Origin: Escherichia coli
GTDB taxonomy: Bacteria; Pseudomonadota; Gammaproteobacteria; Enterobacterales; Enterobacteriaceae
Length of the DNA: 64,000 bases
Reading direction: 5' to 3' (one strand)
Assembly: GCF_016903815.1 (NCBI RefSeq)
Contig: NZ_CP069973.1
The notes under the pieces are model-generated. The model was not told where the DNA came from. It ran no database searches and was given only the letters and a program-made list of their open reading frames with translations. The translations under genes were made by a program, and so were the position numbers. Shown here in pieces: positions 1,622 to 25,946 of the stretch. The stretch's first letter is position 1, and every line of letters starts with the position of its first letter.

Positions 1622-1918
1622 TCAGGCAATTTTGCTATTTACGCAGCACTCCTCGCGTAAGAATTCAATTATCGCTTCCAGCATTGCGTATTGCGAAACA
1701 CACATCAGCGTTCGACTCTCACGGTTTTGTTTGACCAGCCCTACCGATACCAGTGCTGAAATATGGTGACTGAGTGTAGAGCCGGGTATCCCAAGCTGCT
1801 TTTGCAACTCACCGACCGGCAAACCTTGTTCCCCCGCTTTGACCAGGTGTTTGAATATGAACAAACGGGTCGGGTGACCTAGCTCTTTCAGCGCTTTAGC
1901 AACTTCTTCCAACTGCAT
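1622..1918 (-). CDS. ArsR/SmtB-family HTH transcriptional regulator (98 aa) with C-terminal cysteines
   Basis: LGHPTRLFIFKHL...STLSHHISALVSVGLV is the ArsR/SmtB winged-helix signature. No CVC motif in helix 3; cysteines are at LMCVSQ and the C-terminal EECC. Confidence 0.85.
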   Translation of the reverse strand: MQLEEVAKALKELGHPTRLFIFKHLVKAGEQGLPVGELQKQLGIPGSTLSHHISALVSVGLVKQNRESRTLMCVSQYAMLEAIIEFLREECCVNSKIA

Positions 1919-1943
1919 ATGACACCCCCTTTGTCTGGTTGAT

Positions 1944-2002
1944 ATTTCGATAATACCAGAAATATCTTGATCTGAATTTCATTTCGATTATTCTGGAAAT
2001 AT
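1944..2002. promoter_or_regulatory. Candidate operator: two copies of a ~22-bp motif in the divergent regulator/permease intergenic region
   Basis: atttcgataataccagaaatat (1944-1965) and atttcgattattctggaaatat (1981-2002), identical except the central CCAG/CTGG swap, between the two divergent start codons. Confidence 0.4.
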
Positions 2003-2013
2003 AGATTTATTCA

Positions 2014-3027
2014 ATGAGGTTACGTATGAGTAGTTGGCTTGCGATGCTGCAAGATGCCGCAGAGATGTTTGTGTTTCTCGCCGTTGAGCTTTCTTTGCTG
2101 TTTATAGTGATTAGTGCCGGTGTGAGCCTGATAAGACAAAAGGTGCCAGACCATAAAATCCAGCAGATGATGGGGGCCAGAAAAGGGAGAGGTTATCTCC
2201 TGGCTGCTCTGTTGGGAGCCGTTACCCCGTTCTGTAGTTGCTCGACAATACCCATGTTACGTGGATTGTTGTCAGCGAAAGCCGGGTTTGGTCCAACCCT
2301 TACTTTTTTATTTGTTTCACCGCTACTTAATCCCATTATCGTCGGACTAATGTGGGTGACCTTTGGCTGGAAAGTGACCTTGTTGTACGCGATTATCGCC
2401 GCCGGCGTCTCCGTACTTGCCAGTATTATCCTGGATTCTCTGGGATTTGAACGTCATATTATTGCCAGTAAAAGCTCATCAGCAAATTGTTGTGCTCCAG
2501 CCAAAACTTCGCCGGGGACGACATATACGCCAATAAAAGTGAGTTGCTGTAGTCCAGCGGCTAAAGCCATTGAGAAACCTGTAGTAAACTGTTGCAGTAC
2601 CAAAGCTGTGGTAAGTATTAATCCCATAAAACTAGCCACCAAAGATGCGTTGCAACAGTTTAAAGATGTACTGCCATATCTTTTGTTAGGGGTATTAATA
2701 GGCTCTTTTATTTATGGCTTTATTCCCTCAGAGTGGATTGCCGCTCATGCAGGGGCAGATAATCCCTTCGCCATCCCATTGAGCGCCGTTGTCGGTATTC
2801 CGCTATATATCCGGGCAGAGGCGGTTATCCCTCTGGCATCTGTTCTGATGACAAAAGGAATGGCTCTGGGAGCATTAATGGCATTAATCATCGGCAGTGC
2901 CGGCGCAAGCCTGACGGAAGTGATATTACTTAAATCAATGTTCAGAATACCGATGATAGTTGCATTCCTGACGGTTATATTAGGTATGGCTATCTTGATG
3001 GGCTATTTGACTCAAATGCTATTTTAA
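2014..3027 (+). CDS. Putative permease, DUF318/YraQ-ArsP-like, with TPFCSCS motif and a Cys-rich loop (337 aa)
   Basis: Multi-TM hydrophobic protein; AVTPFCSCSTIPMLRGLL matches the conserved ArsP-type motif as I recall it; central loop has three vicinal Cys pairs (NCCAP, SCCSP, NCCST). Confidence 0.8.
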   Translation: MRLRMSSWLAMLQDAAEMFVFLAVELSLLFIVISAGVSLIRQKVPDHKIQQMMGARKGRGYLLAALLGAVTPFCSCSTIPMLRGLLSAKAGFGPTLTFLFVSPLLNPIIVGLMWVTFGWKVTLLYAIIAAGVSVLASIILDSLGFERHIIASKSSSANCCAPAKTSPGTTYTPIKVSCCSPAAKAIEKPVVNCCSTKAVVSINPIKLATKDALQQFKDVLPYLLLGVLIGSFIYGFIPSEWIAAHAGADNPFAIPLSAVVGIPLYIRAEAVIPLASVLMTKGMALGALMALIIGSAGASLTEVILLKSMFRIPMIVAFLTVILGMAILMGYLTQMLF

Positions 3028-3607
3028 ATAGATGCCAGCAGTAAACTATAAGGAGCATTGTGAGTGCCTTATCCTTCTGAGTAGAAAATCATAGATAGGA
3101 TAATCTTTAAAAATCACAAATAACTTAACTAATGCTTTGAGAATGATGACGGATCCGTCAGTAAGTCATCAATCGACAATCACCACGCAATCATGCTTCT
3201 CTGACATTTTATCGGAGAAGCAATGTCTCTTTGTTTCAGTGCTATCCCCCCTTTTAAAGGGCAGATTTCAGTCGCCAATACAACACATTTTTAAATACAC
3301 TTTAACCTGGTTCATTATTACACATCTAAAACATCACAAAAATATCACTTCACACACTATCGGTGAACATCATAACTTTTTAAAATGAGCGCTTTTTGAT
3401 AGTTGTTAACGTTTTCCTTTACGATACTATCACTGCCCTTTTTTTATACACAAATATTACCGGGTGGAGATAAAAGGGAAATCAAAGGTAATTATATCAG
3501 GAAGAGATAACGCATTACATTTATTGTGTGTAGAAGAAAATCCATTCCTGTTCTAATTATCCAATTTAAACATCTTAGCATAAAACAAATGATGAATAAG
3601 GAATTTT

Positions 3608-4831
3608 ATGTCAATTGACTTTACCCCAGGTATAATAAATACATATCACGGCGATATTTATAACTGCACAACAAATACCGATAATGCTAAAACGCCAGAC
3701 ACACCGAAGTGGCCTTGCGATAATTTGGAAGAACAACAACCCATTAATTCCACATTCTCTGGAGAAGGATATACCTCTGATCAATATGATTTAGCGCAAC
3801 ACCAACTTCAACAAATTAATGCGTGCCACACGAACACTACATATACAAATGCAGAATACTCAAAAGTTGTGACTCAACTTGTAAGTCTTATTACTAACAT
3901 TGAAACGATAAGTTCGACACCACTTACGCAACAGACACAATCAATACTTAATCAGATTAATAACATTAGATACGAAAAAAACAAAAGTGCTGAATGTCGA
4001 ATCATTGTTGTCGCTAATCCTAAACCCGACAAGGCAATCATAACTAAAATTAGCGTAGAAGAGGGAATACCAGTAAGATTCAGTGTCCAAACCATGTTTT
4101 CAGATACTAATTTTATTGCTGAACAACGAGCTGACTTACCGACTAATATAAAAGATATTCAAAACCTGTATCAAAAAATGACGAAGTTATATATTGAGCA
4201 CAGTGAAAATAAAAACAGGATGAAAGTCTTTGCCGGAACCAACTTTATTGATTTCAATATGACAGGACAGAACCTGTCCGGGTTCGTTCTAACCTTGTCA
4301 AGGTTTTATTTCGAAGATCTACTTAATATAAATTTCACTGACGCAAATTTAGGTGACACTATTTTTTCACATAAAGAACACCCTGCCCCAAAATTATATA
4401 AAGACGAACAATATCTTGACAAACAAATCGAAGGTTTATTTTCAACATTATTAACCATTAATGACAACTTTTTACGAGCAAAAGCGGAAATTGCTTCGAC
4501 AATAATTAAATTCTTAGAGGCCAGGATAACCAATATTTCATACAATGACATATTAAAATATCAGCAAGAATTCAAAAAACAATGTTATAAGCAAGTTAAA
4601 GCCTTTACGACACTCTCCCGATACAATAAAATTCAAACATGGGCAGAAATGTCTGAATATCAATTCGAAGTATTTCAACGCGAGACGCTTAACCCAAAAA
4701 AAATGTCATGCGCACCTTATTTAAAGAGATCGCTACCTGATGAAAAAACTATAAATTATGGGGTGGAAATAGAAACACCAACTGGCAAAAGAATTCGCTT
4801 ATCAAATCATTACCAGAATATAATCCCATAA
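3608..4831 (+). CDS. Hypothetical AT-rich protein (407 aa) with a pentapeptide-repeat segment; possibly the intact counterpart of the K-12 yhiS pseudogene
   Basis: Long ORF in a markedly AT-rich stretch, no signal peptide. The segment [43 protein letters not shown] forms about nine consecutive pentapeptides with [DN][LFM] periodicity. Position between arsC and slp matches yhiS in K-12. Confidence 0.6.
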
Positions 4832-5075: not shown

Positions 5076-5642
5076 ATGAACATGACAAAAGGTGCACTCA
5101 TCCTCAGCCTTTCATTTTTGCTTGCCGCATGTAGTTCAATTCCGCAAAATATCAAAGGCAATAACCAACCTGATATTCAAAAAAGTTTTGTTGCTGTTCA
5201 TAACCAGCCGGGGTTATATGTTGGTCAACAAGCGCGCTTTGGTGGGAAGGTTATCAACGTTATCAATGGCAAAACGGATACGTTGTTAGAAATCGCTGTA
5301 TTACCGTTGGATAGCTATGCGAAGCCTGATATTGAAGCCAACTATCAGGGCCGACTGCTCGCCAGACAAAGCGGCTTCCTTGATCCAGTGAACTATCGTA
5401 ATCACTTTGTTACCATCCTCGGTACCATTCAGGGTGAACAACCTGGCTTTATCAATAAAGTCCCGTATAACTTCCTCGAAGTGAATATGCAGGGCATCCA
5501 GGTGTGGCATTTGAGAGAAGTGGTTAATACCACCTATAACCTGTGGGATTACGGCTATGGTGCATTCTGGCCGGAACCGGGCTGGGGTGCGCCTTACTAC
5601 ACCAACGCGGTGAGTCAGGTAACACCTGAGCTGGTCAAATAA
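5076..5642 (+). CDS. slp: Outer membrane lipoprotein Slp (188 aa)
   Basis: MNMTKGALILSLSFLLAACSS has a lipobox (LAAC); 188-aa length and synteny match Slp. The ORF-track start at 4857 is an upstream in-frame extension. Confidence 0.9.
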   Translation: MNMTKGALILSLSFLLAACSSIPQNIKGNNQPDIQKSFVAVHNQPGLYVGQQARFGGKVINVINGKTDTLLEIAVLPLDSYAKPDIEANYQGRLLARQSGFLDPVNYRNHFVTILGTIQGEQPGFINKVPYNFLEVNMQGIQVWHLREVVNTTYNLWDYGYGAFWPEPGWGAPYYTNAVSQVTPELVK

Positions 5643-6385: not shown

Positions 6386-7414
6386 TTATGCAGTAACGCC
6401 TTCCGGTATCAGCGAAGCAATTTGCTTACGCCATTGCGCTTGCTCCTGTTCGCCTTCTGTACGTTGACCATAAAGTTGCGCTATCTGCGTACCATCATGG
6501 GCAAACAATTCCAGACTGGTCACATAACCGTCACTAGCAGGTTTACGGGTTACCCAGGTTTCAGCAATGCTCTCTTCTAATAGATGAAGAGTAAACGTCG
6601 GGTTAAAAATATTCAGCCAACCTTTCATTGGCACCACTTTTTCTACCACGCCAGTGAAAATCTGTACGCAGCCACGGTTGCCAACAAACACCATGATTTC
6701 ATTGCCATCCTGCTGTGCAGATTCAAGAATTTGCGCCAACGCACTGTTGGATACTTTGCAGGCCAAATCGTCTGCCACCAGATTGAACGCCTGTTGGCGC
6801 GTCAGGTTGTGGCGCTTGAGCAACGTAAAAAACTGATGAACGTCGGTCATCGCCCGCCACTCTTGCTCGACCACACTGGCATCGGCTCGCATTTGAACGA
6901 CTGGCGCATCAACGGCTTTTAACTCAAGCGGCGTATTCTCATCAGTGATAAACCGTGCCAGAAGCTCACTCCATGCCGCCATATCGGTATTGTCGGTGGC
7001 ATAAACTTTTAGTAATGCATCGCCCTGATGATCAAAGAACTGAATACTCTGGCGTTCGCCACGAGTCGTATTTTCTTTAATGTGAAAAACACTGGCCCAT
7101 TGATTGAGAAACAGACGCAAATCCAGCGCGCGTGGATTGAGGATCAATCCGGCATGTCCGTTCAAATGCTGGTTTGTGAACGCACCAACTTGCTCATGGA
7201 CTGCATATTCATTACGGCAAATACATTTGGTCTCGCCAACACTTTCGAGCGCCGCCAGAATTTCACGGATATCGCCGCGCATCCGCCACGCATCGTGCGT
7301 GACGCGTGCAAATGCCAGTTCTGCTTCGCTAATATTCATTAAACCTGCGATGTCACGCGCGTACTTTCCGGGATTTTGTTCTTTTAACTCAAGCCAGCGT
7401 GTGTAGTGGTTCAT
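6386..7414 (-). CDS. chuS: Haem-degrading/haem oxygenase protein ChuS (342 aa)
   Basis: 342-aa ORF recognised as the ChuS/HemS/ShuS family, immediately downstream of chuA on the same strand. Confidence 0.9.
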   Translation of the reverse strand: MNHYTRWLELKEQNPGKYARDIAGLMNISEAELAFARVTHDAWRMRGDIREILAALESVGETKCICRNEYAVHEQVGAFTNQHLNGHAGLILNPRALDLRLFLNQWASVFHIKENTTRGERQSIQFFDHQGDALLKVYATDNTDMAAWSELLARFITDENTPLELKAVDAPVVQMRADASVVEQEWRAMTDVHQFFTLLKRHNLTRQQAFNLVADDLACKVSNSALAQILESAQQDGNEIMVFVGNRGCVQIFTGVVEKVVPMKGWLNIFNPTFTLHLLEESIAETWVTRKPASDGYVTSLELFAHDGTQIAQLYGQRTEGEQEQAQWRKQIASLIPEGVTA

Positions 7415-7462
7415 TGTCTCTCTTCCTTCCAGATAAATGCCCCGAAATATCGGGGCAGATGA

Positions 7463-9445
7463 TTACCATTGATAACTCACGAAAATTTTTCCATTACGAC
7501 CATCCTGTGGGATGCCTTGTGGCGACCAGTACTCTTTGTCGAAAGCGTTACCCAACACCAAAGTAGTGGTCATACCTTTGAGCGCCTGTTGTCCTTGATA
7601 ACTGACGTAGAAATCATTCACGCCATAGCCTGGTTGTTTGCTGTAACTGCTGCTGATATGTGTTGAGCGATCGGCAAACGTACCAACCCACCCAACAGAG
7701 AAGCCACTGTGAGCGATCGGAATATTCAGGGTACTGGTAACGGTATCCGGGTTAATGCTGGAGATATATTCCCCAGTATCGGTGTCTTTGCCGCGGGTAC
7801 GGTTATAGGCCACATCAAGGCTAAACAGATCAGTGGTATATTTCGTCATTACATCCCAGCCCCAGATTTTGGCGTTCGGGACGTTATACGACATAGTTGT
7901 CGCCGCCGCGAAATCGACGGTCGTGGAGATGTAATCCTTCGCTTTGGTATCAAAGTAGCTGGCTTTAAATTCCAGGGTATCATTGGACAACATCAGGTCA
8001 TCAAAACGCAGCCCAAAACCGTACTCCTGAGTTTCGTTAGTTTCCGGACGTAAGTTCGGGTTTGGCACCCAATAGTTGGTATAGAAGCGACCAATCGAGA
8101 AGTGCTTAGAATCGTTATACATTTCGCCCATCGTCGGGGCGCGGAATGCCTGGGCATATGAGCCAAATAACATCAGCCAGTTAGTCGGATTGATAGTCAT
8201 CCCCGCACGAGATGACCATTTGTCGGCATCAACATCTTTGTAACCGTCACTGCTACCGCGATAACTGTCATAGCGGGTTCCGCCAAGCAGGGTAATCGGC
8301 AGATCGCGTAAGGTGATCTCATCCTGTAGCCAGCCGGAGCTAAAATCGATTTTTGCTTGCGGGAAGCCCGTCGTCGCGCCGCCCGGATGTTGTTCCTGAC
8401 GATAATACTCACCGCCATATGTCAGTAAGTGAGAAGCGAAACTGTCGGCAAAGAGAGTGGAACGGTTCTCCAGCCTGGCTCCTTTTGTTATCTGTTCACG
8501 ATACTCGCCGGAACTCCCCGTGTTTTGCGCATTAATACGGACTTCCGACCAGTAAATTTTTGCATCTGCATTTAACCAGTCGTTGCCCTGCGGGGCGAGT
8601 TTATAAGAAAGCTGCGCATCGCGTTGAATTGTTGAACGATCAACCATCGGGTTGCTGCTATCAGAAGCCTCAACAGTCTGCGGATTTTTTGGTTCACGCG
8701 CGTCGTTGTTGTAGTAACGCACTAAACCGCTCAGAGACTGGGCTGAATCAATTTGCCAGGTCCCTTTCGCCAGCATGTTATTAATGGACTCGTCATTCGG
8801 CGCGGTTTCACCATTGCTCTGGCGTAAATCACCCCGACCGCGACTGGACCAGGCCACAATACCATCCAGATTTTCAGTTCGCCCAAACGCGCTCGCGCCT
8901 AATCCCAGGCTATGGTCCCCCGTGCCGCCAGTACCAAAGACACGAAAACCACTGCTTTGTCCTTCCTGCAATAAATCTTTTGCATCGACCGTATCGTAGG
9001 AGATCACTCCACCCAGCGCACCACTGCCATACAGTAATGCTGAAGGTCCGCGAACAATCTCAACACGCTTGATCAGCGCCGGATCGAGAAAAGTGCCATT
9101 CAGGTGTCCGGTATCCGTTCCCTGGCGAACACCATCGACAAGAACCAGCACGCCGCGATGATCATAGCCACGCATATTTACATCCTGACCGTTGGTTCGT
9201 CCGGTACCATCAAGAGTAATTCCAGGAACATGACGCAGCAAATCAGTGGCTGAAGTAGCCGTTTGATTTTCAGGAGCGGAAGTGTCGATGACGCTGACCA
9301 TCATAGGCGCTTCGAAGGAACTACGGGCATTCCCCGTTGCCGTAACGGTCATGGTTTCAGTAGCAAAAGCAAACGTTGGCAAGGTGGCAGAAACAGCCAA
9401 AGCCAACAAACTCAAACGCAACGAGGTAAATTGCGGACGTGACAT
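7463..9445 (-). CDS. chuA: TonB-dependent outer membrane haem/haemoglobin receptor ChuA (660 aa)
   Basis: Signal peptide, TonB-box-like N-terminus (ETMTVTA), plug and beta-barrel, C-terminal aromatic residue (ends ...FVSYQW). Confidence 0.95.
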   Translation of the reverse strand: MSRPQFTSLRLSLLALAVSATLPTFAFATETMTVTATGNARSSFEAPMMVSVIDTSAPENQTATSATDLLRHVPGITLDGTGRTNGQDVNMRGYDHRGVLVLVDGVRQGTDTGHLNGTFLDPALIKRVEIVRGPSALLYGSGALGGVISYDTVDAKDLLQEGQSSGFRVFGTGGTGDHSLGLGASAFGRTENLDGIVAWSSRGRGDLRQSNGETAPNDESINNMLAKGTWQIDSAQSLSGLVRYYNNDAREPKNPQTVEASDSSNPMVDRSTIQRDAQLSYKLAPQGNDWLNADAKIYWSEVRINAQNTGSSGEYREQITKGARLENRSTLFADSFASHLLTYGGEYYRQEQHPGGATTGFPQAKIDFSSGWLQDEITLRDLPITLLGGTRYDSYRGSSDGYKDVDADKWSSRAGMTINPTNWLMLFGSYAQAFRAPTMGEMYNDSKHFSIGRFYTNYWVPNPNLRPETNETQEYGFGLRFDDLMLSNDTLEFKASYFDTKAKDYISTTVDFAAATTMSYNVPNAKIWGWDVMTKYTTDLFSLDVAYNRTRGKDTDTGEYISSINPDTVTSTLNIPIAHSGFSVGWVGTFADRSTHISSSYSKQPGYGVNDFYVSYQGQQALKGMTTTLVLGNAFDKEYWSPQGIPQDGRNGKIFVSYQW

Positions 9446-9734
9446 AGCGATTCTCCATGAGGAAAATAAAAAATGCTGGCTGCCTGGGTTAATACCGGGG
9501 TGGCTGGCGAAAAATAAATTTATTTAAAATTCAGAGCGATAATATTCGCCGGGTGAGTTTACAGGCGTTTATATCCCATGAAATTGCCTGGTATCTCGGC
9601 AAATACGCAAAAGCACGCCCTCTTTGTCAGGCAAAACGATATGCCCCATCAGGAGTGAAGAGCGCTGTGCGTTATCCCTTGCAAATGCTATGGTTTTGTT
9701 ATCCATATGGTCGTGTTTTGTTAAGCGCGAACGT

Positions 9735-9753
9735 GATAATGAGAATTATTATC
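9735..9753. promoter_or_regulatory. Candidate Fur box in the chuA upstream region
   Basis: gataatgagaattattatc matches the 19-bp Fur consensus GATAATGATAATCATTATC at 16 of 19 positions; about 290 bp upstream of the chuA start. Confidence 0.55.
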
Positions 9754-10086
9754 GATCAATTTTTTATGATCAAGCTTTTTTTTAACCGCCATTAACACAA
9801 TAAACAGGGGGTTATGAAACTTATCCTGCGCCCTGTAAACCACTTTGTTTTTATGGTTATTCCCCCATGACCTCATTACTAAACTTTGTCGTTAGCAGTG
9901 ATAATTTTCTCTTCGCTTTGCTCTGCAAGCCTCGATATCTGTGGGTTCTCAGCTTTTTCCCGCGCTGAAATTTAGTCGGTAACAAGAACGTTAGCTGACG
10001 AAGCATCTTGATAAAAATCAAAAATAAATACGCTTGTAACGCCTTGCGTATTGAATCGACGGTTGTATTTCATATATAACTCAAAT

Positions 10087-10105
10087 GATAATAATGATCA
10101 TTCTC
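10087..10105. promoter_or_regulatory. Candidate Fur box upstream of the chuT operon
   Basis: gataataatgatcattctc matches the Fur consensus at about 15 of 19 positions; lies in the chuA-chuT divergent region just 5' of the chuT ATG at 10129. Confidence 0.55.
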
Positions 10106-10128
10106 AATTTGATAAGAGTTCTCATATT

Positions 10129-11043
10129 ATGCCAAGGATCATCACCAGGCCGTTTCTTTTTTCCCCACTAACGTTATGTATTTCAGCCGTGGCCTCTGCC
10201 GCGAAGACCGCGGTAAAACGAAAAAAAATGTTTACGGCAGTACTGGCTCTTAGCTGGGCTTTTAGCGTAACGGCTGCCGAACGTATCGTGGTCGCAGGAG
10301 GATCGCTGACGGAGCTAATCTACGCGATGGGCGCTGGCGAACGCGTGGTTGGTGTCGATGAAACGACATCTTATCCACCAGAAACCGCCAAACTGCCGCA
10401 TATTGGCTACTGGAAACAACTCAACAGCGAAGGCATTTTGTCACTTCGCCCGGATAGCGTAATTACCTGGCAGGATGCCGGGCCACAAATTGTGCTCGAC
10501 CAACTACGAGCGCAGAAAGTCAACGTCGTTACCCTGCCGCGTGTGCCTGCCACCCTTGAGCAGATGTACGCCAACATTCGCCAACTGGCAAAAACGCTAC
10601 AGGTTCCTGAACAAGGCGAGGCGCTGGTGACACAGATCAACCAACGCCTGGAGCGAGTACAGCAAAACGTGGCGGCCAAAAAAGCCCCGGTTAAAGCCAT
10701 GTTTATTCTCTCCGCAGGCGGAAGTGCGCCACAGGTTGCCGGTAAAGGCAGCGTCGCGGACGCCATTCTTTCGCTTGCCGGAGCAGAAAACGTCGCAACC
10801 CACCAGCAGTACAAAAGCTACAGTGCAGAATCACTGATTGCGGCCAATCCAGAAGTGATTGTCGTAACCTCACAAATGGTCGATGGCGATATTAATCGGC
10901 TACGTTCTATTGCCGGAATTACCCACACTGCCGCATGGAAAAACCAGCGCATTATCACCGTTGATCAAAACCTGATTCTGGGAATGGGTCCGCGTATTGC
11001 TGATGTCGTTGAGTCTTTACACCAGCAGCTTTGGCCGCAATAA
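10129..11043 (+). CDS. chuT: Periplasmic haem-binding protein ChuT
   Basis: Class III periplasmic binding protein. The ORF track opens at 10051 with TTG; I chose the first ATG (MPRIITRP...). A later start at 10228 (MFTAVLALSW...) is also possible. Confidence 0.8.
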   Translation: MPRIITRPFLFSPLTLCISAVASAAKTAVKRKKMFTAVLALSWAFSVTAAERIVVAGGSLTELIYAMGAGERVVGVDETTSYPPETAKLPHIGYWKQLNSEGILSLRPDSVITWQDAGPQIVLDQLRAQKVNVVTLPRVPATLEQMYANIRQLAKTLQVPEQGEALVTQINQRLERVQQNVAAKKAPVKAMFILSAGGSAPQVAGKGSVADAILSLAGAENVATHQQYKSYSAESLIAANPEVIVVTSQMVDGDINRLRSIAGITHTAAWKNQRIITVDQNLILGMGPRIADVVESLHQQLWPQ

Positions 11044-11062
11044 ATGGATTTAAATCAGACGA

Positions 11063-12400
11063 ATGAACGCAAATAACACCCTGGATCTCACGCCACATTT
11101 TGCTTTAGACGGTGATCAGCCATTTAAAGACAGGCGCGCCATGATGCCGTTTCGTGGAGCCATTCCGGTTGCCAAAGAGCAACTGGCACAGACCTGGCAA
11201 GAGATGATCAATCAAACGGTATCACCACGTAAGCGACTGGTTTATCTACACATTCCTTTTTGTGCGACACACTGCACGTTTTGTGGTTTTTATCAGAACC
11301 GTTTTAATGAAGATGCGTGTGCTCATTATACCGACGCCCTGATTCGTGAAATAGAAATGGAAGCGGACAGCGTATTGCATCATTCTGCCCCCATCCACGC
11401 GGTCTATTTCGGTGGCGGTACGCCTTCCGCGCTTTCGGCACACGATTTGGCCAGAATCATCACCACATTACGAGAAAAGCTGCCACTGGCCCCTGATTGT
11501 GAAATCACTATCGAAGGCCGGGTACTGAATTTTGACGCTGAGCGAATCGATGCTTGCCTTGATGCAGGAGCAAACCGCTTCTCAATTGGTATTCAGTCGT
11601 TTAACAGCAAAATCCGTAAGAAAATGGCCCGCACCTCGGATGGCCCAACCGCCATTGCGTTTATGGAAAGCCTGGTCAAACGCGACCGTGCTGCGGTGGT
11701 CTGTGATCTGCTGTTTGGCCTGCCGGGTCAGGATGCGCAAACCTGGGGAGAAGATCTGGCTATTGCTCGCGATATCGGTCTCGACGGCGTCGATCTCTAT
11801 GCGCTCAATGTCCTGCCCAATACACCGCTGGGCAAAGCCGTGGAAAATGGGCGCACTACCGTGCCCTCTCCGGCAGAACGTCGCGATCTTTATCTGCAAG
11901 GGTGTGATTTTATGGACGATGACGGTTGGCGCTGCATCAGTAACAGCCACTGGGGCCGTACCACACGCGAACGCAATCTCTATAACCTGCTGATAAAACA
12001 AGGTGCCGATTGTCTGGCCTTTGGTTCCGGAGCCGGCGGTTCGATTAATGGTTACTCCTGGATGAACGAACGCAATCTTCAGACCTGGCATGAATCCGTC
12101 GCGGCAGGCAAAAAACCGCTGATGATGATCATGCGTAACGCCGAACGTGATGCGCAATGGCGTCATACCTTGCAGTCAGGTGTTGAAACAGCGCGTGTAC
12201 CGCTGGATGAACTTACGCCACATGCCGAAAAACTCGCGCCGTTACTGGCTCAATGGCACCAAAAAGGCTTAAGCCGCGATGCGTCAACTTGCCTGCGGCT
12301 GACTAATGAAGGTCGTTTCTGGGCAAGCAATATTTTGCAGTCTCTTAATGAACTAATTCAGGTACTTAATGCGCCAGCGATTGTGCGTGAAAAACCATAA
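11063..12400 (+). CDS. chuW: Radical SAM enzyme ChuW, HemN-like anaerobilin synthase (445 aa)
   Basis: CxxxCxxC radical-SAM motif (FCATHCTFCGFY) in a 445-aa HemN-like protein within the chu operon. Confidence 0.9.
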   Translation: MNANNTLDLTPHFALDGDQPFKDRRAMMPFRGAIPVAKEQLAQTWQEMINQTVSPRKRLVYLHIPFCATHCTFCGFYQNRFNEDACAHYTDALIREIEMEADSVLHHSAPIHAVYFGGGTPSALSAHDLARIITTLREKLPLAPDCEITIEGRVLNFDAERIDACLDAGANRFSIGIQSFNSKIRKKMARTSDGPTAIAFMESLVKRDRAAVVCDLLFGLPGQDAQTWGEDLAIARDIGLDGVDLYALNVLPNTPLGKAVENGRTTVPSPAERRDLYLQGCDFMDDDGWRCISNSHWGRTTRERNLYNLLIKQGADCLAFGSGAGGSINGYSWMNERNLQTWHESVAAGKKPLMMIMRNAERDAQWRHTLQSGVETARVPLDELTPHAEKLAPLLAQWHQKGLSRDASTCLRLTNEGRFWASNILQSLNELIQVLNAPAIVREKP

Positions 12401-12412
12401 CAGGAGTGATTT

Positions 12413-12907
12413 ATGAGCCATGTCTCGTTACAAGAATTTTTGAAAACGGAGCCGGACGGTACGCTGGAGGTGGTAGCCGAACAATACAACACCACACTGC
12501 TGGAAGTAGTGAAAAACCTGCCCTCCTCAACCATAGTGTCAGGCGATAAATTCGATACTGTCTGGGATACCGTCTGCGAATGGGGCAACGTCACCACGTT
12601 AGTACATACTGCCGATGTTATCCTCGAATTTAGCGGCGAACTGCCTTCGGGTTTCCACCGCCACGGCTATTTCAACCTACGCGGAAAGCACGGCATGTCC
12701 GGGCATATCAAAGCAGAAAACTGCACGCATATTGCCTTGATCGAACGTAAATTTATGGGCATGGACACCGCCTCTATTCTCTTTTTCAATAAGAAAGGCA
12801 GCGCCATGCTGAAAATCTTCCTCGGCAGGGATGACCATCGTCAGCTCCTGAGCGAACAAGTCAGCGCCTTCCATGCTCTGGCAGCATCGTTAAAGGAACA
12901 CGCCTGA
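12413..12907 (+). CDS. chuX: Haem utilisation protein ChuX (164 aa)
   Basis: 164-aa ORF in conserved chuWXY order, tightly packed with its neighbours. Confidence 0.85.
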   Translation: MSHVSLQEFLKTEPDGTLEVVAEQYNTTLLEVVKNLPSSTIVSGDKFDTVWDTVCEWGNVTTLVHTADVILEFSGELPSGFHRHGYFNLRGKHGMSGHIKAENCTHIALIERKFMGMDTASILFFNKKGSAMLKIFLGRDDHRQLLSEQVSAFHALAASLKEHA

Positions 12908-13530
12908 TGACACCGTGGCTACTCTTTGGCGCAGGCGGAAAAGGTGTGGGTGCCAGAACGCTTGAACTGGCGCTGGCAGAGCAACGTCCGGTCGTTGCTG
13001 TCGTTCGTCATGCCGATGCCGCCACGAAACTGGCGCAACAAGGCGTACAGTTTTTTACAGGCGACGCCTGTGATGCCAGCGTAGTCGCGGATGCTTGCCG
13101 CGCAGCTGGCCCGGATGCGCTTATCATCTCAACAATGGGCGGAGCTCAGGATTATCTGGCGCACAGAACAGTGATTGATGAGGCCGAAAAGGCCGGCATT
13201 AGTCGCATGATTCTGGTGACCTCTTTGGGATGCGGCGATAGCTGGCCGTTTTTATCGGAGCGAGCAAAGGCTGCGTTTGGTCAGGCGGTACGGGAAAAAA
13301 CGCTGGCGGAAAGCTGGTTGCAAACCAGCCAGCTTGATTACGCCATTCTCCGCCCTGGCGGTCTGCTTGATGGGGCGGCAACGGGCAAAGCACAACGGAT
13401 ACAAAATCAGGAGTGTCATGGTTTTGTTAACCGTGCCGATGTCGCCGCACATATCCATGAACTGGCAAATGCGCCAGCACTTAACCAGCAGGTCTACAGT
13501 CTGATTGAACCGGACCTGAAACCGGCGTGA
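12907..13530 (+). CDS. chuY: NAD(P)-binding reductase ChuY (207 aa)
   Basis: N-terminal Rossmann-like GxxGxxG (LLFGAGGKGVGA); start overlaps the chuX stop. Confidence 0.85.
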   Translation: MTPWLLFGAGGKGVGARTLELALAEQRPVVAVVRHADAATKLAQQGVQFFTGDACDASVVADACRAAGPDALIISTMGGAQDYLAHRTVIDEAEKAGISRMILVTSLGCGDSWPFLSERAKAAFGQAVREKTLAESWLQTSQLDYAILRPGGLLDGAATGKAQRIQNQECHGFVNRADVAAHIHELANAPALNQQVYSLIEPDLKPA

Positions 13531-13578
13531 TCCCCCGGCGCGGAATCTCCGCGCCGTAATGTCGTAACGGAGTTTTGC

Positions 13579-14571
13579 GTGCTCAAGGATTCACTCTCTT
13601 CCGCCAGGGTCTTTATGGGGCTATCACTATTATTGCTCGCTCTGGTGCTGTTCGGTGCCAGTCAGGGAGCGTTAAAGATCAGTTTTGATGCTCTTTTTGA
13701 TGAGGAATACCGCGATATCTGGCTCAATATTCGTCTACCACGGGTTTTGCTGGCGGTGCTGGTAGGTGCAGCGTTGGCAACCGCAGGGGTAATTATGCAG
13801 GGGCTTTTTCGCAACCCAATGGCTGACCCAGGATTACTTGGCGTCAGTAGCGGTTCTGCATTAATGGTTGGCGTTGCTATTGTGCTACCGTTCTCCTTCC
13901 CAGTGGTGCTGGTGCTCTATGAGCAAATGGTGTTTGCCATTGCCGGAAGTTTAGTGGTCTGCACCATCATTTTTCTCATCACGCAGCGCCATCGCGATGG
14001 CAGCATGATGCAATTATTACTCGCCGGTATCGCCATCAATGCCCTGTGCGGCGCAGCGATCGGCATCCTGAGCTATATCGGCGATGAGCAGCAGCTACGA
14101 CAACTCACATTGTGGATGATGGGCAATCTTGGACAGGCGCAATGGCCGACGTTATTGGTTGCCAGTTCATTCATCCTACCGGCCATTATCGCAACAACTT
14201 GTCTCGCCGGAACGCTGAATTTACTGCAGCTCGGTGATGAAGAAGCCCACTACCTCGGCGTGAACGTTAAGCGTAAACGCCAGCAATTACTGTTAGTGAG
14301 CTCACTGCTCGTTGGTGCCGCCGTATCGGTAAGCGGCATTATCGGCTTTATTGGCCTGGTGATCCCGCATCTGATTCGTATGACTACCGGGGCAAATCAC
14401 CGCTGGCTAATCCCTTGCTCCGCCCTCGCCGGAGCCTGTTTATTGCTGATGGCAGACACGCTTGCCCGCACGCTGGTACAGCCAGCAGAAATGCCCGTGG
14501 GATTATTAACCAGCCTGCTTGGTGGCCCTTATTTTATGTGGTTGATTCTGCGCAACCGGAGGATCACATGA
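13579..14571 (+). CDS. chuU: Haem ABC transporter permease ChuU (330 aa)
   Basis: FecCD-family polytopic permease; start codon appears non-ATG in the ORF track. Confidence 0.85.
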
Positions 14572-15338
14572 TCAGCGCCCAGAATCTGGTTTATAGCCTT
14601 CAGGGGCGGCGTCTGACTGATAATGTCTCGCTGACTTTTCCCGGTGGGGAAATCGTTGCCATTCTCGGCCCTAATGGTGCGGGAAAATCTACGCTGCTTC
14701 GCCAGTTAACCGGCTATCTTCAACCTGATAGCGGCGAATGTCGGTTGTTTAATAAGCCATTAAATGAATGGTCGATTACTGAACTGGCGAAACACCGGGC
14801 CGTGATGCGTCAAAATAGCCACATGGCGTTTCCATTCAGCGTACAAGAAGTTATCCAGATGGGGCGGCATCCGCATCGCACTGGTAATCAGGATAATGAA
14901 ACAGCACAAATAATGGCGTTATGTGACTGTCAGGCGTTAGCAAACCGCGACTATCGGCAATTATCCGGTGGTGAACAACAGCGCGTGCAATTAGCGCGCC
15001 TGCTGGTGCAACTCTGGGAACCTACTCCCTCACCGAAATGGTTATTTCTTGATGAACCAACTTCGGCGCTGGATATTCACCATCAGCAGCACTTGTTTCG
15101 TTTATTACGCCAGCTAGTTCACGAACGGCAGTTCAATGTTTGCTGCGTATTGCACGATCTAAATCTTGCCGCGCGTTATGCAGACCGTGTTGTATTAATG
15201 CAAAAAGGAAAGGTTATCGCAAATGGTAAACCACAGGACGTATTGACACAGCAGGCGCTGACCATGCTTTACGGCGCGGATATTACCGTACTTAAAGATC
15301 CTGCCAGCCATTCCCCCCTGATCGTCCTCGATCATTAA
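14568..15338 (+). CDS. chuV: Haem ABC transporter ATPase ChuV (256 aa)
   Basis: Walker [13 protein letters not shown] signature LSGGEQQR, Walker B LFLDEP. Start taken at [10 protein letters not shown] with ATGA overlap to chuU; the ORF-track start at 14415 is an in-frame extension inside chuU. Confidence 0.9.
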
Positions 15339-18500: not shown

Positions 18501-19028
18501 ATGATTTTTCTCATGACGAAAGATTCTTTTCTTTTACAGGGCTTTTGGCAGTTGAAAGATAATCACGAAATGATAAAAATCAATTCCCTGTCAGAGATCA
18601 AAAAAGTAGGCAATAAACCCTTCAAGGTTATCATTGATACCTATCACAATCATATCCTTGATGAAGAAGCGATTAAATTTCTGGAGAAATTAGATGCCGA
18701 GAGAATTATTGTTTTGGCACCTTATCACATCAGTAAACTAAAAGCTAAAGCGCCTATTTATTTTGTTAGTCGCAAAGAAAGTATCAAAAATCTTCTTGAG
18801 ATTACTTATGGTAAACACTTGCCCCATAAGAATTCACAATTATGTTTTTCACATAATCAGTTCAAAATTATGCAACTGATTCTGAAAAATAAAAATGAAA
18901 GCAATATCACGTCGACGCTCAATATTTCGCAACAAACATTAAAGATTCAGAAATTCAACATTATGTACAAGCTGAAACTAAGACGTATGAGCGACATCGT
19001 CACCCTGGGTATCACATCTTATTTTTAG
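18501..19028 (+). CDS. gadE: LuxR-family acid-resistance activator GadE (175 aa)
   Basis: MIFLMTKDSFLLQGFWQLK... 175 aa, preceded by a ~800-bp AT-rich regulatory region after hdeD. The ORF-track start at 18423 is an upstream extension. Confidence 0.9.
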   Translation: MIFLMTKDSFLLQGFWQLKDNHEMIKINSLSEIKKVGNKPFKVIIDTYHNHILDEEAIKFLEKLDAERIIVLAPYHISKLKAKAPIYFVSRKESIKNLLEITYGKHLPHKNSQLCFSHNQFKIMQLILKNKNESNITSTLNISQQTLKIQKFNIMYKLKLRRMSDIVTLGITSYF

Positions 19029-19366
19029 TCAGGACATAAGCAACTGAAATTGATGGCTGGCATGACGAGGGATGCAGATGCTGATTTCATTACCCCCGGT
19101 GATTACTAAAGGAGAGGCGAAAACGACTTTATTCCCCTGGTATATGTATCCACCAGTAGAACCCTTCGTTGCCCGAATGCTGGCAGGAACTGTTGGCAGA
19201 ACGGCAACATTTTTTTTGTCGTTGACCTCACCATGTCGATCACTATGCCTGTATCCCACCTTACTGGCTGACAACCCCACTATGCCGCTGGTCTGTAAAT
19301 CCCTCATATCTCTCCTCGCGCGCAATTTAAAGAACCGTTATTTCTCAAGAATTTTCAGGGACTAAA

Positions 19367-20524
19367 ATGAACAGAAGAAGAAAGCTGTTAATACCGTTGT
19401 TATTCTGCGGCGCGATGCTCACCGCCTGCGATGACAAATCGGCGGAAAACGCCGCCGCCATGACGCCTGAGGTCGGTGTCGTCACGCTCTCCCCCGGTTC
19501 GGTCAATGTGTTGAGCGAATTACCCGGTAGAACCGTTCCTTATGAAGTTGCCGAGATACGTCCCCAGGTGGGCGGTATTATCATTAAACGCAACTTTATC
19601 GAAGGCGATAAAGTGAACCAGGGCGATTCGCTGTATCAGATTGATCCTGCACCTTTACAGGCCGAGCTGAACTCCGCCAAAGGCACGCTGGCGAAAGCGC
19701 TCTCTACCGCCAGCAATGCCCGCATCACCTTTAACCGCCAGGCATCGTTGCTGAAGACCAACTACGTTAGCCGTCAGGATTACGACACCGCGCGCACCCA
19801 GTTGAATGAAGCAGAAGCCAATGTCACCGTCGCCAAAGCGGCTGTTGAACAGGCGACTATCAACCTGCAATACGCGAATGTCACCTCGCCGATTACGGGC
19901 GTCAGCGGGAAATCGTCGGTGACCGTCGGCGCACTCGTTACCGCTAATCAGGCAGATTCGCTGGTTACCGTACAACGTCTGGACCCGATTTATGTCGATC
20001 TCACGCAGTCGGTGCAGGATTTCTTGCGCATGAAAGAAGAGGTCGCCAGTGGGCAAATCAAACAGGTTCAGGGCAGTACGCCAGTACAGCTCAATCTGGA
20101 AAATGGTAAACGTTACAGCCAGACCGGCACGCTGAAATTCTCCGACCCGACGGTGGATGAAACCACGGACTCCGTGACGTTACGGGCGATTTTCCCCAAC
20201 CCAAATGGTGACTTGCTGCCTGGCATGTATGTCACGGCATTAGTGGATGAAGGTAGCCGCCAGAATGTATTACTGGTGCCGCAGGAAGGCGTCACCCACA
20301 ACGCCCAGGGTAAAGCAGCGGCGCTCATTCTGGATAAAGACGATGTCGTGCAGCTACGCGAAATTGAAGCCAGCAAAGCCATCGGCGACCAGTGGGTTGT
20401 CACCTCTGGCTTGCAGGCTGGCGATCGGGTGATCGTTTCCGGTTTGCAACGCATTCGTCCGGGTATCAAAGCACGAGCAATTTCCTCCAGCCAGGAAAAC
20501 GTCAGCACCGAATCGAAACAATAA
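19367..20524 (+). CDS. mdtE: RND efflux membrane fusion protein MdtE (385 aa)
   Basis: Lipoprotein signal (LLFCGAMLTAC), AcrA-like periplasmic adaptor, 385 aa. Confidence 0.95.
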   Translation: MNRRRKLLIPLLFCGAMLTACDDKSAENAAAMTPEVGVVTLSPGSVNVLSELPGRTVPYEVAEIRPQVGGIIIKRNFIEGDKVNQGDSLYQIDPAPLQAELNSAKGTLAKALSTASNARITFNRQASLLKTNYVSRQDYDTARTQLNEAEANVTVAKAAVEQATINLQYANVTSPITGVSGKSSVTVGALVTANQADSLVTVQRLDPIYVDLTQSVQDFLRMKEEVASGQIKQVQGSTPVQLNLENGKRYSQTGTLKFSDPTVDETTDSVTLRAIFPNPNGDLLPGMYVTALVDEGSRQNVLLVPQEGVTHNAQGKAAALILDKDDVVQLREIEASKAIGDQWVVTSGLQAGDRVIVSGLQRIRPGIKARAISSSQENVSTESKQ

Positions 20525-24024: not shown

Positions 24025-24753
24025 TCAGGAAAAGGTACCTGGCGAATGTTGCGCAAACTGATGTGGCGTTACACCATAATATTGTCGAAATGTGTTTATA
24101 AAGTACGACGTACTGCTATAGCCACATTTTTCCGCAATAGTATGCAGAGGAATTTGACGTAACTCGAGTAATCGTCTGGCCATCGACATCCTGGAGGCGA
24201 GTAATATTTTACTGAAACAGGTATTTTCATCCTGCAACTTTTTTTTGATGAGACTCTCGCTGGTATACATTCTTTCCGCAATATCGCGCAGATACCAACG
24301 TTTGGCGATATCAAAGCTAATAAGGCGTTCAACTTTTCCTGAAACAGTACTGATACTATTGAAAAGTAAGGGGATCAGTTCTTTCTTATGAGAAAACATC
24401 GATAAACAGGAAAGATAGAGCATTTTGCTCAGTATCGGTGAATTTACCCCTGATTCATTGAAACTATCAAAAATCGCCGTCACCAGCGGCATGGGGGGTG
24501 ACTGGTTAATTAACAGACGGTCTTTGCTATGTAACCCTAAATTGCGTGGTATCTGACGAATATTTTGTAAGTAATGGCAAACTGTCAGCTCATCGATATC
24601 CAGTCGTCGCGTATCCGGTGAACAAAACGCAAAATCGTCTGCCAAATTTTTATCCAGTAACAGGATACTCTCGTTGTGCAACGATATTTTTTGCTGTTCA
24701 TGATAAATATCGAATGAACGACGAACGAGGATCACCGAGCAGACATGAGTCAT
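24025..24753 (-). CDS. gadW: AraC-family regulator GadW (242 aa)
   Basis: 242-aa AraC/XylS family protein with C-terminal HTH; synteny. Confidence 0.9.
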   Translation of the reverse strand: MTHVCSVILVRRSFDIYHEQQKISLHNESILLLDKNLADDFAFCSPDTRRLDIDELTVCHYLQNIRQIPRNLGLHSKDRLLINQSPPMPLVTAIFDSFNESGVNSPILSKMLYLSCLSMFSHKKELIPLLFNSISTVSGKVERLISFDIAKRWYLRDIAERMYTSESLIKKKLQDENTCFSKILLASRMSMARRLLELRQIPLHTIAEKCGYSSTSYFINTFRQYYGVTPHQFAQHSPGTFS

Positions 24754-24999
24754 GACTATCCCTTATATTTCATTACTGCGATTATTTCAATTTCAGTATA
24801 CTAATGAAATGATGCCAGACTGTTTCTTAGCGCAAAAACTGCCAGATTTGGTAGGACCAAAATTTATCCACAAAGTAGTTTTGCATAACAGTTAATTGAT
24901 AATAAGTAAATGCAGCACGAATATATTTTCGCACAGCGTATAGCTTATGTTTATAAAAAAATGGCTGATCTTATTTCCAGTAAAAGTTATATTTAACTT

Positions 25000-25104
25000 A
25001 CTGAGAGCACAAAGTTTCCCGTGCCAACAGGGAGTGTTATAACGGTTTATTAGTCTGGAGACGGCAGACTATCCTCTTCCCGGTCCCCTATGCCGGGTTT
25101 TTTT
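25000..25104 (+). ncRNA. gadY: Small RNA GadY, antisense to the gadX 3' end
   Basis: 105-nt stretch beginning actgagagcacaaagtttccc and ending in the hairpin cccgg...ccggg plus T-run, matching the GadY sequence as I recall it; lies on the opposite strand just 3' of gadX. Confidence 0.7.
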
Positions 25105-25121
25105 TATGTCTGAGTAAAACT

Positions 25122-25946
25122 CTATAATCTTATTCCTTCCGCAGAACGGTCAGTGCCGTAAAAATTCCCTTGTGCAACAATACTTGCCGCCGGGTCACGG
25201 TTCGGCAATCCCTGCGCCGATCGCTCCTGATACTCTGTGGGCGTCATCCCATAATAATTTCGAAAAACGTAAATAAAATACGACACGCTGTGATATCCAC
25301 AGGATACTGCAACTCGCTTAATTGAAACACCATATATAACAATAAGTTGTAAAGCACGCTGCATCCTACACTCAGTAAGCAACTGTGAATATGACGTACC
25401 TTCTTCGCGCAATTTTTTCTTTAACAGGCTTGGACTCATCAACAGCTCGCTGGCGATTCGGGCTAATGTCCACTCATGGGCGATATTATTATTGATGACC
25501 GTACAAACTCGTGTTCGCATATTCGGTTGCAACACGTTCAGTAGTAACGGTATAAACTGCATATCCTCAAGAAAAACAGATAACAACGCAAAGATTAATG
25601 CCCTTTTACGTAGCATTTCTGCATAGCGAAGATTCTTATTCTGCGATAGTTGCGCAACTTCCTGAAAAACAGGAATATCTCTGGTACAGTGATGAACGAG
25701 TAATGCAGGAACTTTTTTATGTGCATGAAGTTTTAATGCCTCCTCCTTGAGCATCGGGAGAAATAATGAAAGCGTGTCTCTTGAAACTAATACGAAATTC
25801 TCAACACACTTATCCACTTGAATTTGGCTTGCATCCGCAAAAACCAGATCACCGCCATTAAAATAGCGATATTCACCATTAACCATGGTGAGAATATATT
25901 TATGTCTTGCGTACGCAATTAGACAATTACCATGTAGTGGTTGCAT
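25122..25946 (-). CDS. gadX: AraC-family regulator GadX (274 aa)
   Basis: 274-aa AraC/XylS protein upstream of gadW and downstream of gadA. Confidence 0.9.
   Translation of the reverse strand: MQPLHGNCLIAYARHKYILTMVNGEYRYFNGGDLVFADASQIQVDKCVENFVLVSRDTLSLFLPMLKEEALKLHAHKKVPALLVHHCTRDIPVFQEVAQLSQNKNLRYAEMLRKRALIFALLSVFLEDMQFIPLLLNVLQPNMRTRVCTVINNNIAHEWTLARIASELLMSPSLLKKKLREEGTSYSQLLTECRMQRALQLIVIYGVSIKRVAVSCGYHSVSYFIYVFRNYYGMTPTEYQERSAQGLPNRDPAASIVAQGNFYGTDRSAEGIRL

Follow-up and report, generated by a model that had tools for sequence, protein, structure and literature searches.

A K-12-identical copy of the antisense small RNA gene gadY in the acid fitness island of an Escherichia coli genome, and its conservation across the species

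Within a 64,000-nucleotide stretch of Escherichia coli DNA, hereafter the window, the segment 25000..25105 on the plus strand is almost certainly gadY, a cis-encoded antisense small RNA that belongs to the acid fitness island of E. coli. Its identity, position, strand and terminator, its complementarity to the RNA beyond the gadX stop codon, and its exceptional conservation were all established directly for this DNA. The feature is already known and its copy here is identical to the reference, so that the identification, while correct, is an ordinary one.

Identity and position of gadY

The whole window is 100% identical to positions 3936964..4000963 of the chromosome of E. coli strain 7/2 (NZ_CP023820.1), and we used the RefSeq annotation of that strain for the flanking genes. 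Sequence comparison placed the gadY gene of K-12 MG1655 (b4452, 106 nt) at 25000..25105 on the plus strand with 106 of 106 positions identical, and the b4452 sequence occurs as a single copy within the 64,000 nt. An initial annotation of this DNA had named the segment gadY and proposed alignment with the K-12 gene as a check; that alignment bears the name out. A scan against 4227 Rfam families, repeated over the whole window, returned a full-length match to GadY (RF00122) at 24997..25110 on the plus strand, covering model positions 1-114 of 114 with a score of 150 bits (E = 2.6e-32), where membership of the family is defined by a covariance model score at or above the gathering score of 45 bits. 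The plus strand reads ACTGAGAGCACAAAG... from 25000, and the RNA, 105 or 106 nt long, has its 3′ end at 25104/25105.

The surroundings of the gene are likewise those of K-12. In the MG1655 reference annotation, gadY (ncRNA, b4452) lies at NC_000913.3 3664864..3664969 between gadW (b3515) and gadX (b3516), and the order mdtF, gadW, gadY, gadX, gadA, ccp is common to K-12 and the window. The gadW–gadX intergenic regions of the two are 99.5% identical, separated by one substitution and one single-base indel that both fall within 20 nt of the gadW start. K-12 GadY (also called IS183) is thus matched in its 106-nt sequence, its core promoter and terminator, its strand and flanking genes, and its 16-nt distance from the gadX stop; there is no difference inside the RNA or its promoter, whereas the neighbouring gadX and gadW alleles do differ. 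The gadX gene (25122..25946, minus strand; an 825-nt open reading frame) encodes an AraC-family acid-resistance activator of 274 aa that departs from its K-12 counterpart at 15 of 274 residues. Downstream on the same strand, gadW (24025..24753, minus strand; a 729-nt annotated open reading frame) encodes an AraC-family regulator of 242 aa with 4 of 242 residues changed.

These coordinates fix the relationship between the small RNA and its target. The gadX stop codon, TAG, occupies 25122..25124, and a 16-nt spacer (25106..25121) separates it from the region of the duplex. The gadX 3′ UTR, which is also the gadX–gadW intercistronic RNA (25000..25121, minus strand), therefore contains a perfectly complementary target for GadY, and the initial proposal that GadY pairs with the gadX 3′ UTR follows from the positions themselves. 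The same proposal had drawn the feature as 25000..25122 (123 nt) and described it as overlapping the gadX 3′ end. Its start is right, but its end overshoots the 3′ end of the RNA by 17 nt, which comprise the 16-nt spacer and the first base of the gadX stop codon; and the overlap holds for the 3′ UTR and intercistronic RNA but not for the gadX coding sequence, as the RNA ends 16 nt away from it.

A small-protein reading of 25000..25124 was rejected, as stops occur in all three plus-strand frames and the sole ATG-initiated reading frame has seven codons. We found no evidence that contradicts the gadY identification. The RefSeq (PGAP) annotation of strain 7/2, like those of the other PGAP-annotated genomes we examined, carries no gadY feature.

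Several other features of the window deserve mention in their own right. Between arsC and slp, the RefSeq annotation lists an ArsR/SmtB-family regulator, a permease and a 407-aa hypothetical protein (3608..4831) within 1622..4831. Between dctR and yhiD, the acid fitness island carries an inserted chu/shu heme-uptake cluster (6386..15338), with chuS, chuA, shuT, hutW, hutX, chuY, shuU and an ATPase gene; a match to the shuA/chuA 5′ UTR thermoregulator lies at 9443..9474 on the minus strand, scoring 60 bits where the gathering threshold is 58. K-12 is not known to have this insertion. A full-length Rfam match (105 bits) marks the ES205 small RNA at 19146..19217 on the plus strand, in the gadE–mdtE spacer just downstream of gadE (18501..19028), a position that corresponds to that of GadF, a small RNA derived from the gadE 3′ UTR (PMC5145812). 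The RefSeq hypothetical protein that spans ES205 on the opposite strand (19029..19307) is probably spurious. For mdtE (19367..20524, plus strand), the ATG at 19367 is intact and encodes a lipoprotein-type signal, MNRRRKLLIPLLFCGAMLTAC; RefSeq starts the gene at 19415, 48 nt further downstream, which looks like an annotation discrepancy and not a mutation. Farther along, bcsQ (54942..55694, minus strand), which opens the bcsQABZC cellulose synthase operon, is a pseudogene according to RefSeq; codon 120 is an internal stop (...GRYQ*ILIDLP), and on this sequence the strain may be cellulose-deficient. The site of this stop differs from that of the early stop in K-12 bcsQ. Between bcsG and yhjV, three tandem copies of a type I toxin–antitoxin unit (59688..60876, with a period of about 484 nt) each combine an Ldr toxin reading frame of 35 aa on the minus strand with an rdlD-family antitoxin RNA on the plus strand; in K-12 this locus holds only one ldrD/rdlD pair, and the triple array lies elsewhere.

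Promoter, terminator and predicted fold

The putative gadY core promoter, read from the sequence and identical to that of K-12, occupies 24961..24999 on the plus strand. It contains a weak −35-like hexamer, CTGATC (24965..24970), which matches the consensus at 3 of 6 positions, and a −10-like TATATT (24988..24993), with the start at 25000 lying 6 nt further on; we infer that these hexamers are the −35 and −10 elements of gadY. With only those three matches in its −35, the promoter went uncalled in a generic sigma-70 scan. So weak a −35 would fit a promoter that depends on an activator or on RpoS, although it proves nothing, and the GadY transcript was reportedly found by Opdyke in 2004 to be RpoS-dependent.

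Regulatory sites described for this promoter can be placed on the same DNA. At 24961..24968, ATGGCTGA conforms to ATGSCWGM, the AppY motif that overlaps the gadY −35 in a study that places the promoter under AppY control (PMC10057817). The gadY promoter also responds to SdiA, which affects the gadY and gadW promoters alike (PMC7286202). PMC7286202 cites Tramonti 2008 for the divergent arrangement of these promoters and for 42-bp GadX/GadW sites at them; placed from the literature, the putative gadW promoters here would diverge from gadY within 24754..24999.

At the opposite end of the gene, a terminator scan called a rho-independent terminator at 25079..25105 on the plus strand, made up of a G+C-rich hairpin, CCCGGTCCCCTATGCCGGG (25079..25097; six pairs, five of them G–C), and a run of eight T (25098..25105). 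The same scan found no other terminator-like site on either strand of 24600..25300. The initial description of a 105-nt segment that ends in a rho-independent terminator, opposite gadX and just past its stop codon, is accurate in these respects. The U tail is likely to serve as the Hfq-binding 3′ end as well.

The location of this hairpin raises a different reading, in which the segment would be no RNA gene but merely the stretch in which the gadX transcription unit ends, that is, a bidirectional terminator or a conserved gadX/gadW regulatory element. The position of the hairpin, 16-43 nt beyond the gadX stop, is indeed one expected of a gadX terminator, and the DNA of the segment also lies upstream of gadW. 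On the minus strand, however, the hairpin is followed by AAGAGGAUAG (AAGAGG) and not by a U tract, as against U8 on the plus strand, and for this reason we rejected it as an intrinsic terminator of gadX; the lack of a gadX terminator at this point fits the published gadX–gadW co-transcript. Moreover, the sequence is that of an experimentally established and annotated RNA gene that matches its Rfam model end to end, and PMC4574537, citing Opdyke 2004, gives three GadY species of 105, 90 and 59 nt on northern blots. We regard the reading without an RNA gene as close to untenable, and take the segment as gadY in what follows.

The minimum-free-energy fold of the 105-nt GadY has three stem-loops and matches the Rfam consensus. 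Predicted stem-loops 1 (25000..25046) and 2 (25051..25071) are joined by a predicted AU-rich linker (25047..25050), and the third is the terminator stem-loop (25079..25097) with its U tail, all on the plus strand. The fold energy of −28.6 kcal/mol compares with a mean of −26.5 for shuffled sequences (z = −0.64), and 50 of 200 shuffles folded at least as well; because GadY is no more stable than its shuffles, the energy lends the structure no independent support. Covariation support for the three stem-loops is impossible because the RNA is invariant, with no substitutions inside GadY among nine E. coli alleles and representatives of three other Escherichia species.

Conservation of gadY between variable neighbours

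gadY is a sharp island of conservation between variable neighbours. The gadW–gadX intergenic locus was found in 5412-5413 of 5426 complete E. coli genomes, and against this whole collection we compared queries of equal length (145 nt) at a threshold of at least 99% identity. The query that spans gadY and its core promoter passed this threshold in 5380 of 5412 genomes (99.4%), the neighbouring intergenic DNA in 2745 of 5396, and the 3′-terminal 145 nt of gadX in only 107 of 5412, the gadX allele of the window being a rare one. Column by column, among nine diverse E. coli alleles picked across the range of identities, none of the 39 promoter positions varied and only 1 of the 106 RNA positions did, as a change in length from T8 to T7. 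In the same alleles 7.1% of the gadW columns varied, as did 7.7% of those in the remaining intergenic DNA on the left and 9.2% of those in gadX.

Outside E. coli, an exact 20-mer search in which each prokaryotic species was represented by one genome recovered gadY in three Escherichia representatives, with GadY model scores of 143-150 bits; a search of this kind is no evidence for the absence of gadY from E. albertii, E. fergusonii or other genera. But for one extra A in an unpaired run, the transcribed sequence is the same in these three, and their promoter and downstream spacer are variable. Two 20-mer matches in Bacteroidales metagenome-assembled genomes were dismissed as chance, as neither region matches the GadY model.

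The locus has been subject to rearrangement in some strains. Strain KFu015 (NZ_CP147130.1) is one exception to the near-universal presence of the region, with an IS1 (IS1A) copy in place of gadY, gadX, gadA and part of ccp. The match in strain EH08-18-36 is in two pieces that span gadW and gadX, with an IS1 transposase gene between them; IS1 is thus active at the gadY locus in these other strains. The flanks of the window also differ in their relatedness within the nine-allele comparison. The gadW side is closest to MLI109 (99.3%) and S1-SRB-02-B (98.9%), and the gadX side is closest to E2348/69 (98.1%) and GN02050 (97.8%), whose gadW genes are only 95.5% identical to that of the window. This switch in relatedness across gadY suggests recombination within the intergenic region.

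The antisense role of GadY does not explain why 106 transcribed nucleotides and 39 promoter nucleotides should be all but frozen in E. coli and neighbouring Escherichia lineages when 7-9% of the flanks varies, because complementarity to the opposite strand survives any mutation. One conceivable source of the conservation is a set of protein-binding sites in the DNA, for GadX/GadW, AppY and SdiA at the divergent gadY–gadW promoters, in place of constraint on the RNA. The AppY motif at the −35 (PMC10057817), the effect of SdiA on both promoters (PMC7286202) and the reported 42-bp GadX/GadW sites (Tramonti 2008, as cited in PMC7286202) are all in keeping with such an origin. Sites upstream of the transcription start, however, could account for the invariant 39-nt promoter but not for the 106 transcribed nucleotides, and the intergenic DNA nearer the gadW promoters varies as coding regions do. 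Binding sites in DNA are therefore a very improbable explanation for the conservation of gadY.

Predicted mechanism and biological meaning

Given the identity of the sequence, the mechanism published for K-12 GadY should apply unchanged here; for transcription, size forms, Hfq binding, the role of RNase III and the positive effect on gadX, we draw on the literature on that identical sequence. Transcription of gadY would start at its own promoter (about 24961..24999) and end at its own hairpin-plus-U8 terminator, with expression expected, from published K-12 work, in stationary phase and in mild acid. The RNA would pair with the segment of the gadX–gadW transcript that starts 16 nt past the gadX stop, and the resulting long duplex would be cut by RNase III and by at least one other nuclease. 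Cleavage would separate gadX from gadW and lead to more gadX mRNA and GadX protein, and GadX would in turn activate gadA and gadBC, both directly and via gadE, which together constitute glutamate-dependent acid resistance. GadY would additionally bind Hfq and have targets in trans.

Most of these steps have been described for K-12. According to PMC3919570, RNase III takes part in the GadY-dependent cleavage of gadX–gadW mRNA, and cleavage persists in its absence, which implies a second nuclease. PMC4574537 and PMC7286202 report that GadY increases the level of gadX mRNA and so induces the glutamate decarboxylase system. PMC11300174 places GadY between gadX and gadW, on the strand opposite to both, and reports that it binds Hfq.

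RIL-seq identified GadY as an Hfq-dependent, trans-acting small RNA with acid-response partners, which were enriched for acid-stress genes and in some cases confirmed with GFP fusions (PMC5145812), and sdiA has been reported as a further target (PMC11300174). According to PMC4574537, constitutive GadY activated the glutamate decarboxylase system even without expression of gadE, gadX and gadW. It is thus possible, if somewhat less than probable, that GadY acts mainly in trans, in an Hfq-dependent manner and on distant mRNAs such as those of acid-response genes and sdiA, and that its antisense overlap with gadX matters less. The RNA is invariant over all 106 nt, which is more than antisense pairing calls for, and among the alternatives considered a main role in trans is the only one that helps to explain the frozen RNA. 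A trans role is nonetheless compatible with the cis mechanism, for which the gadX–gadW cleavage described in PMC3919570 is direct published support, and we retain the cis-encoded antisense reading.

As to what holds the sequence constant, we offer a tentative and rather unlikely suggestion. GadY might be constrained mainly by several trans targets or Hfq contacts distributed along its whole length, or by precise structural needs of duplex processing; in addition, the frozen block could be a preferred crossover point for recombination in the acid fitness island, since the change in relatedness between the two flanks coincides with it.

Two other RNAs place GadY in context. The OOP RNA of phage lambda, which is named alongside GadY in PMC3919570, is likewise a short cis-encoded antisense RNA to the 3′ region of an mRNA, with a duplex that is cut by RNase III. 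OOP, however, is antisense to part of the cII coding sequence and reduces cII expression, whereas GadY pairs past the stop codon, with an increase in gadX mRNA, and their sequences are probably unrelated. GadF, at the position of ES205, resembles GadY as an Hfq-associated small RNA of the acid fitness island that is abundant in stationary phase and has acid-response targets (PMC5145812); it is processed from the sense gadE transcript, whereas GadY has its own antisense promoter, and the sequences of GadF and GadY are unrelated.

gadY has been characterised since 2004 and has its own Rfam family and an entry in the K-12 reference annotation, so that its presence here carries little weight as a discovery. 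The practical value of the result is for annotation, as gadY is easily missed where PGAP records lack the feature, as they do here. A mildly useful new datum is the scale of its conservation, even though the regulatory genes on either side of gadY are among the more variable ones in the island. Judged from these comparisons of sequence, that conservation argues for a constraint on gadY beyond simple antisense complementarity.
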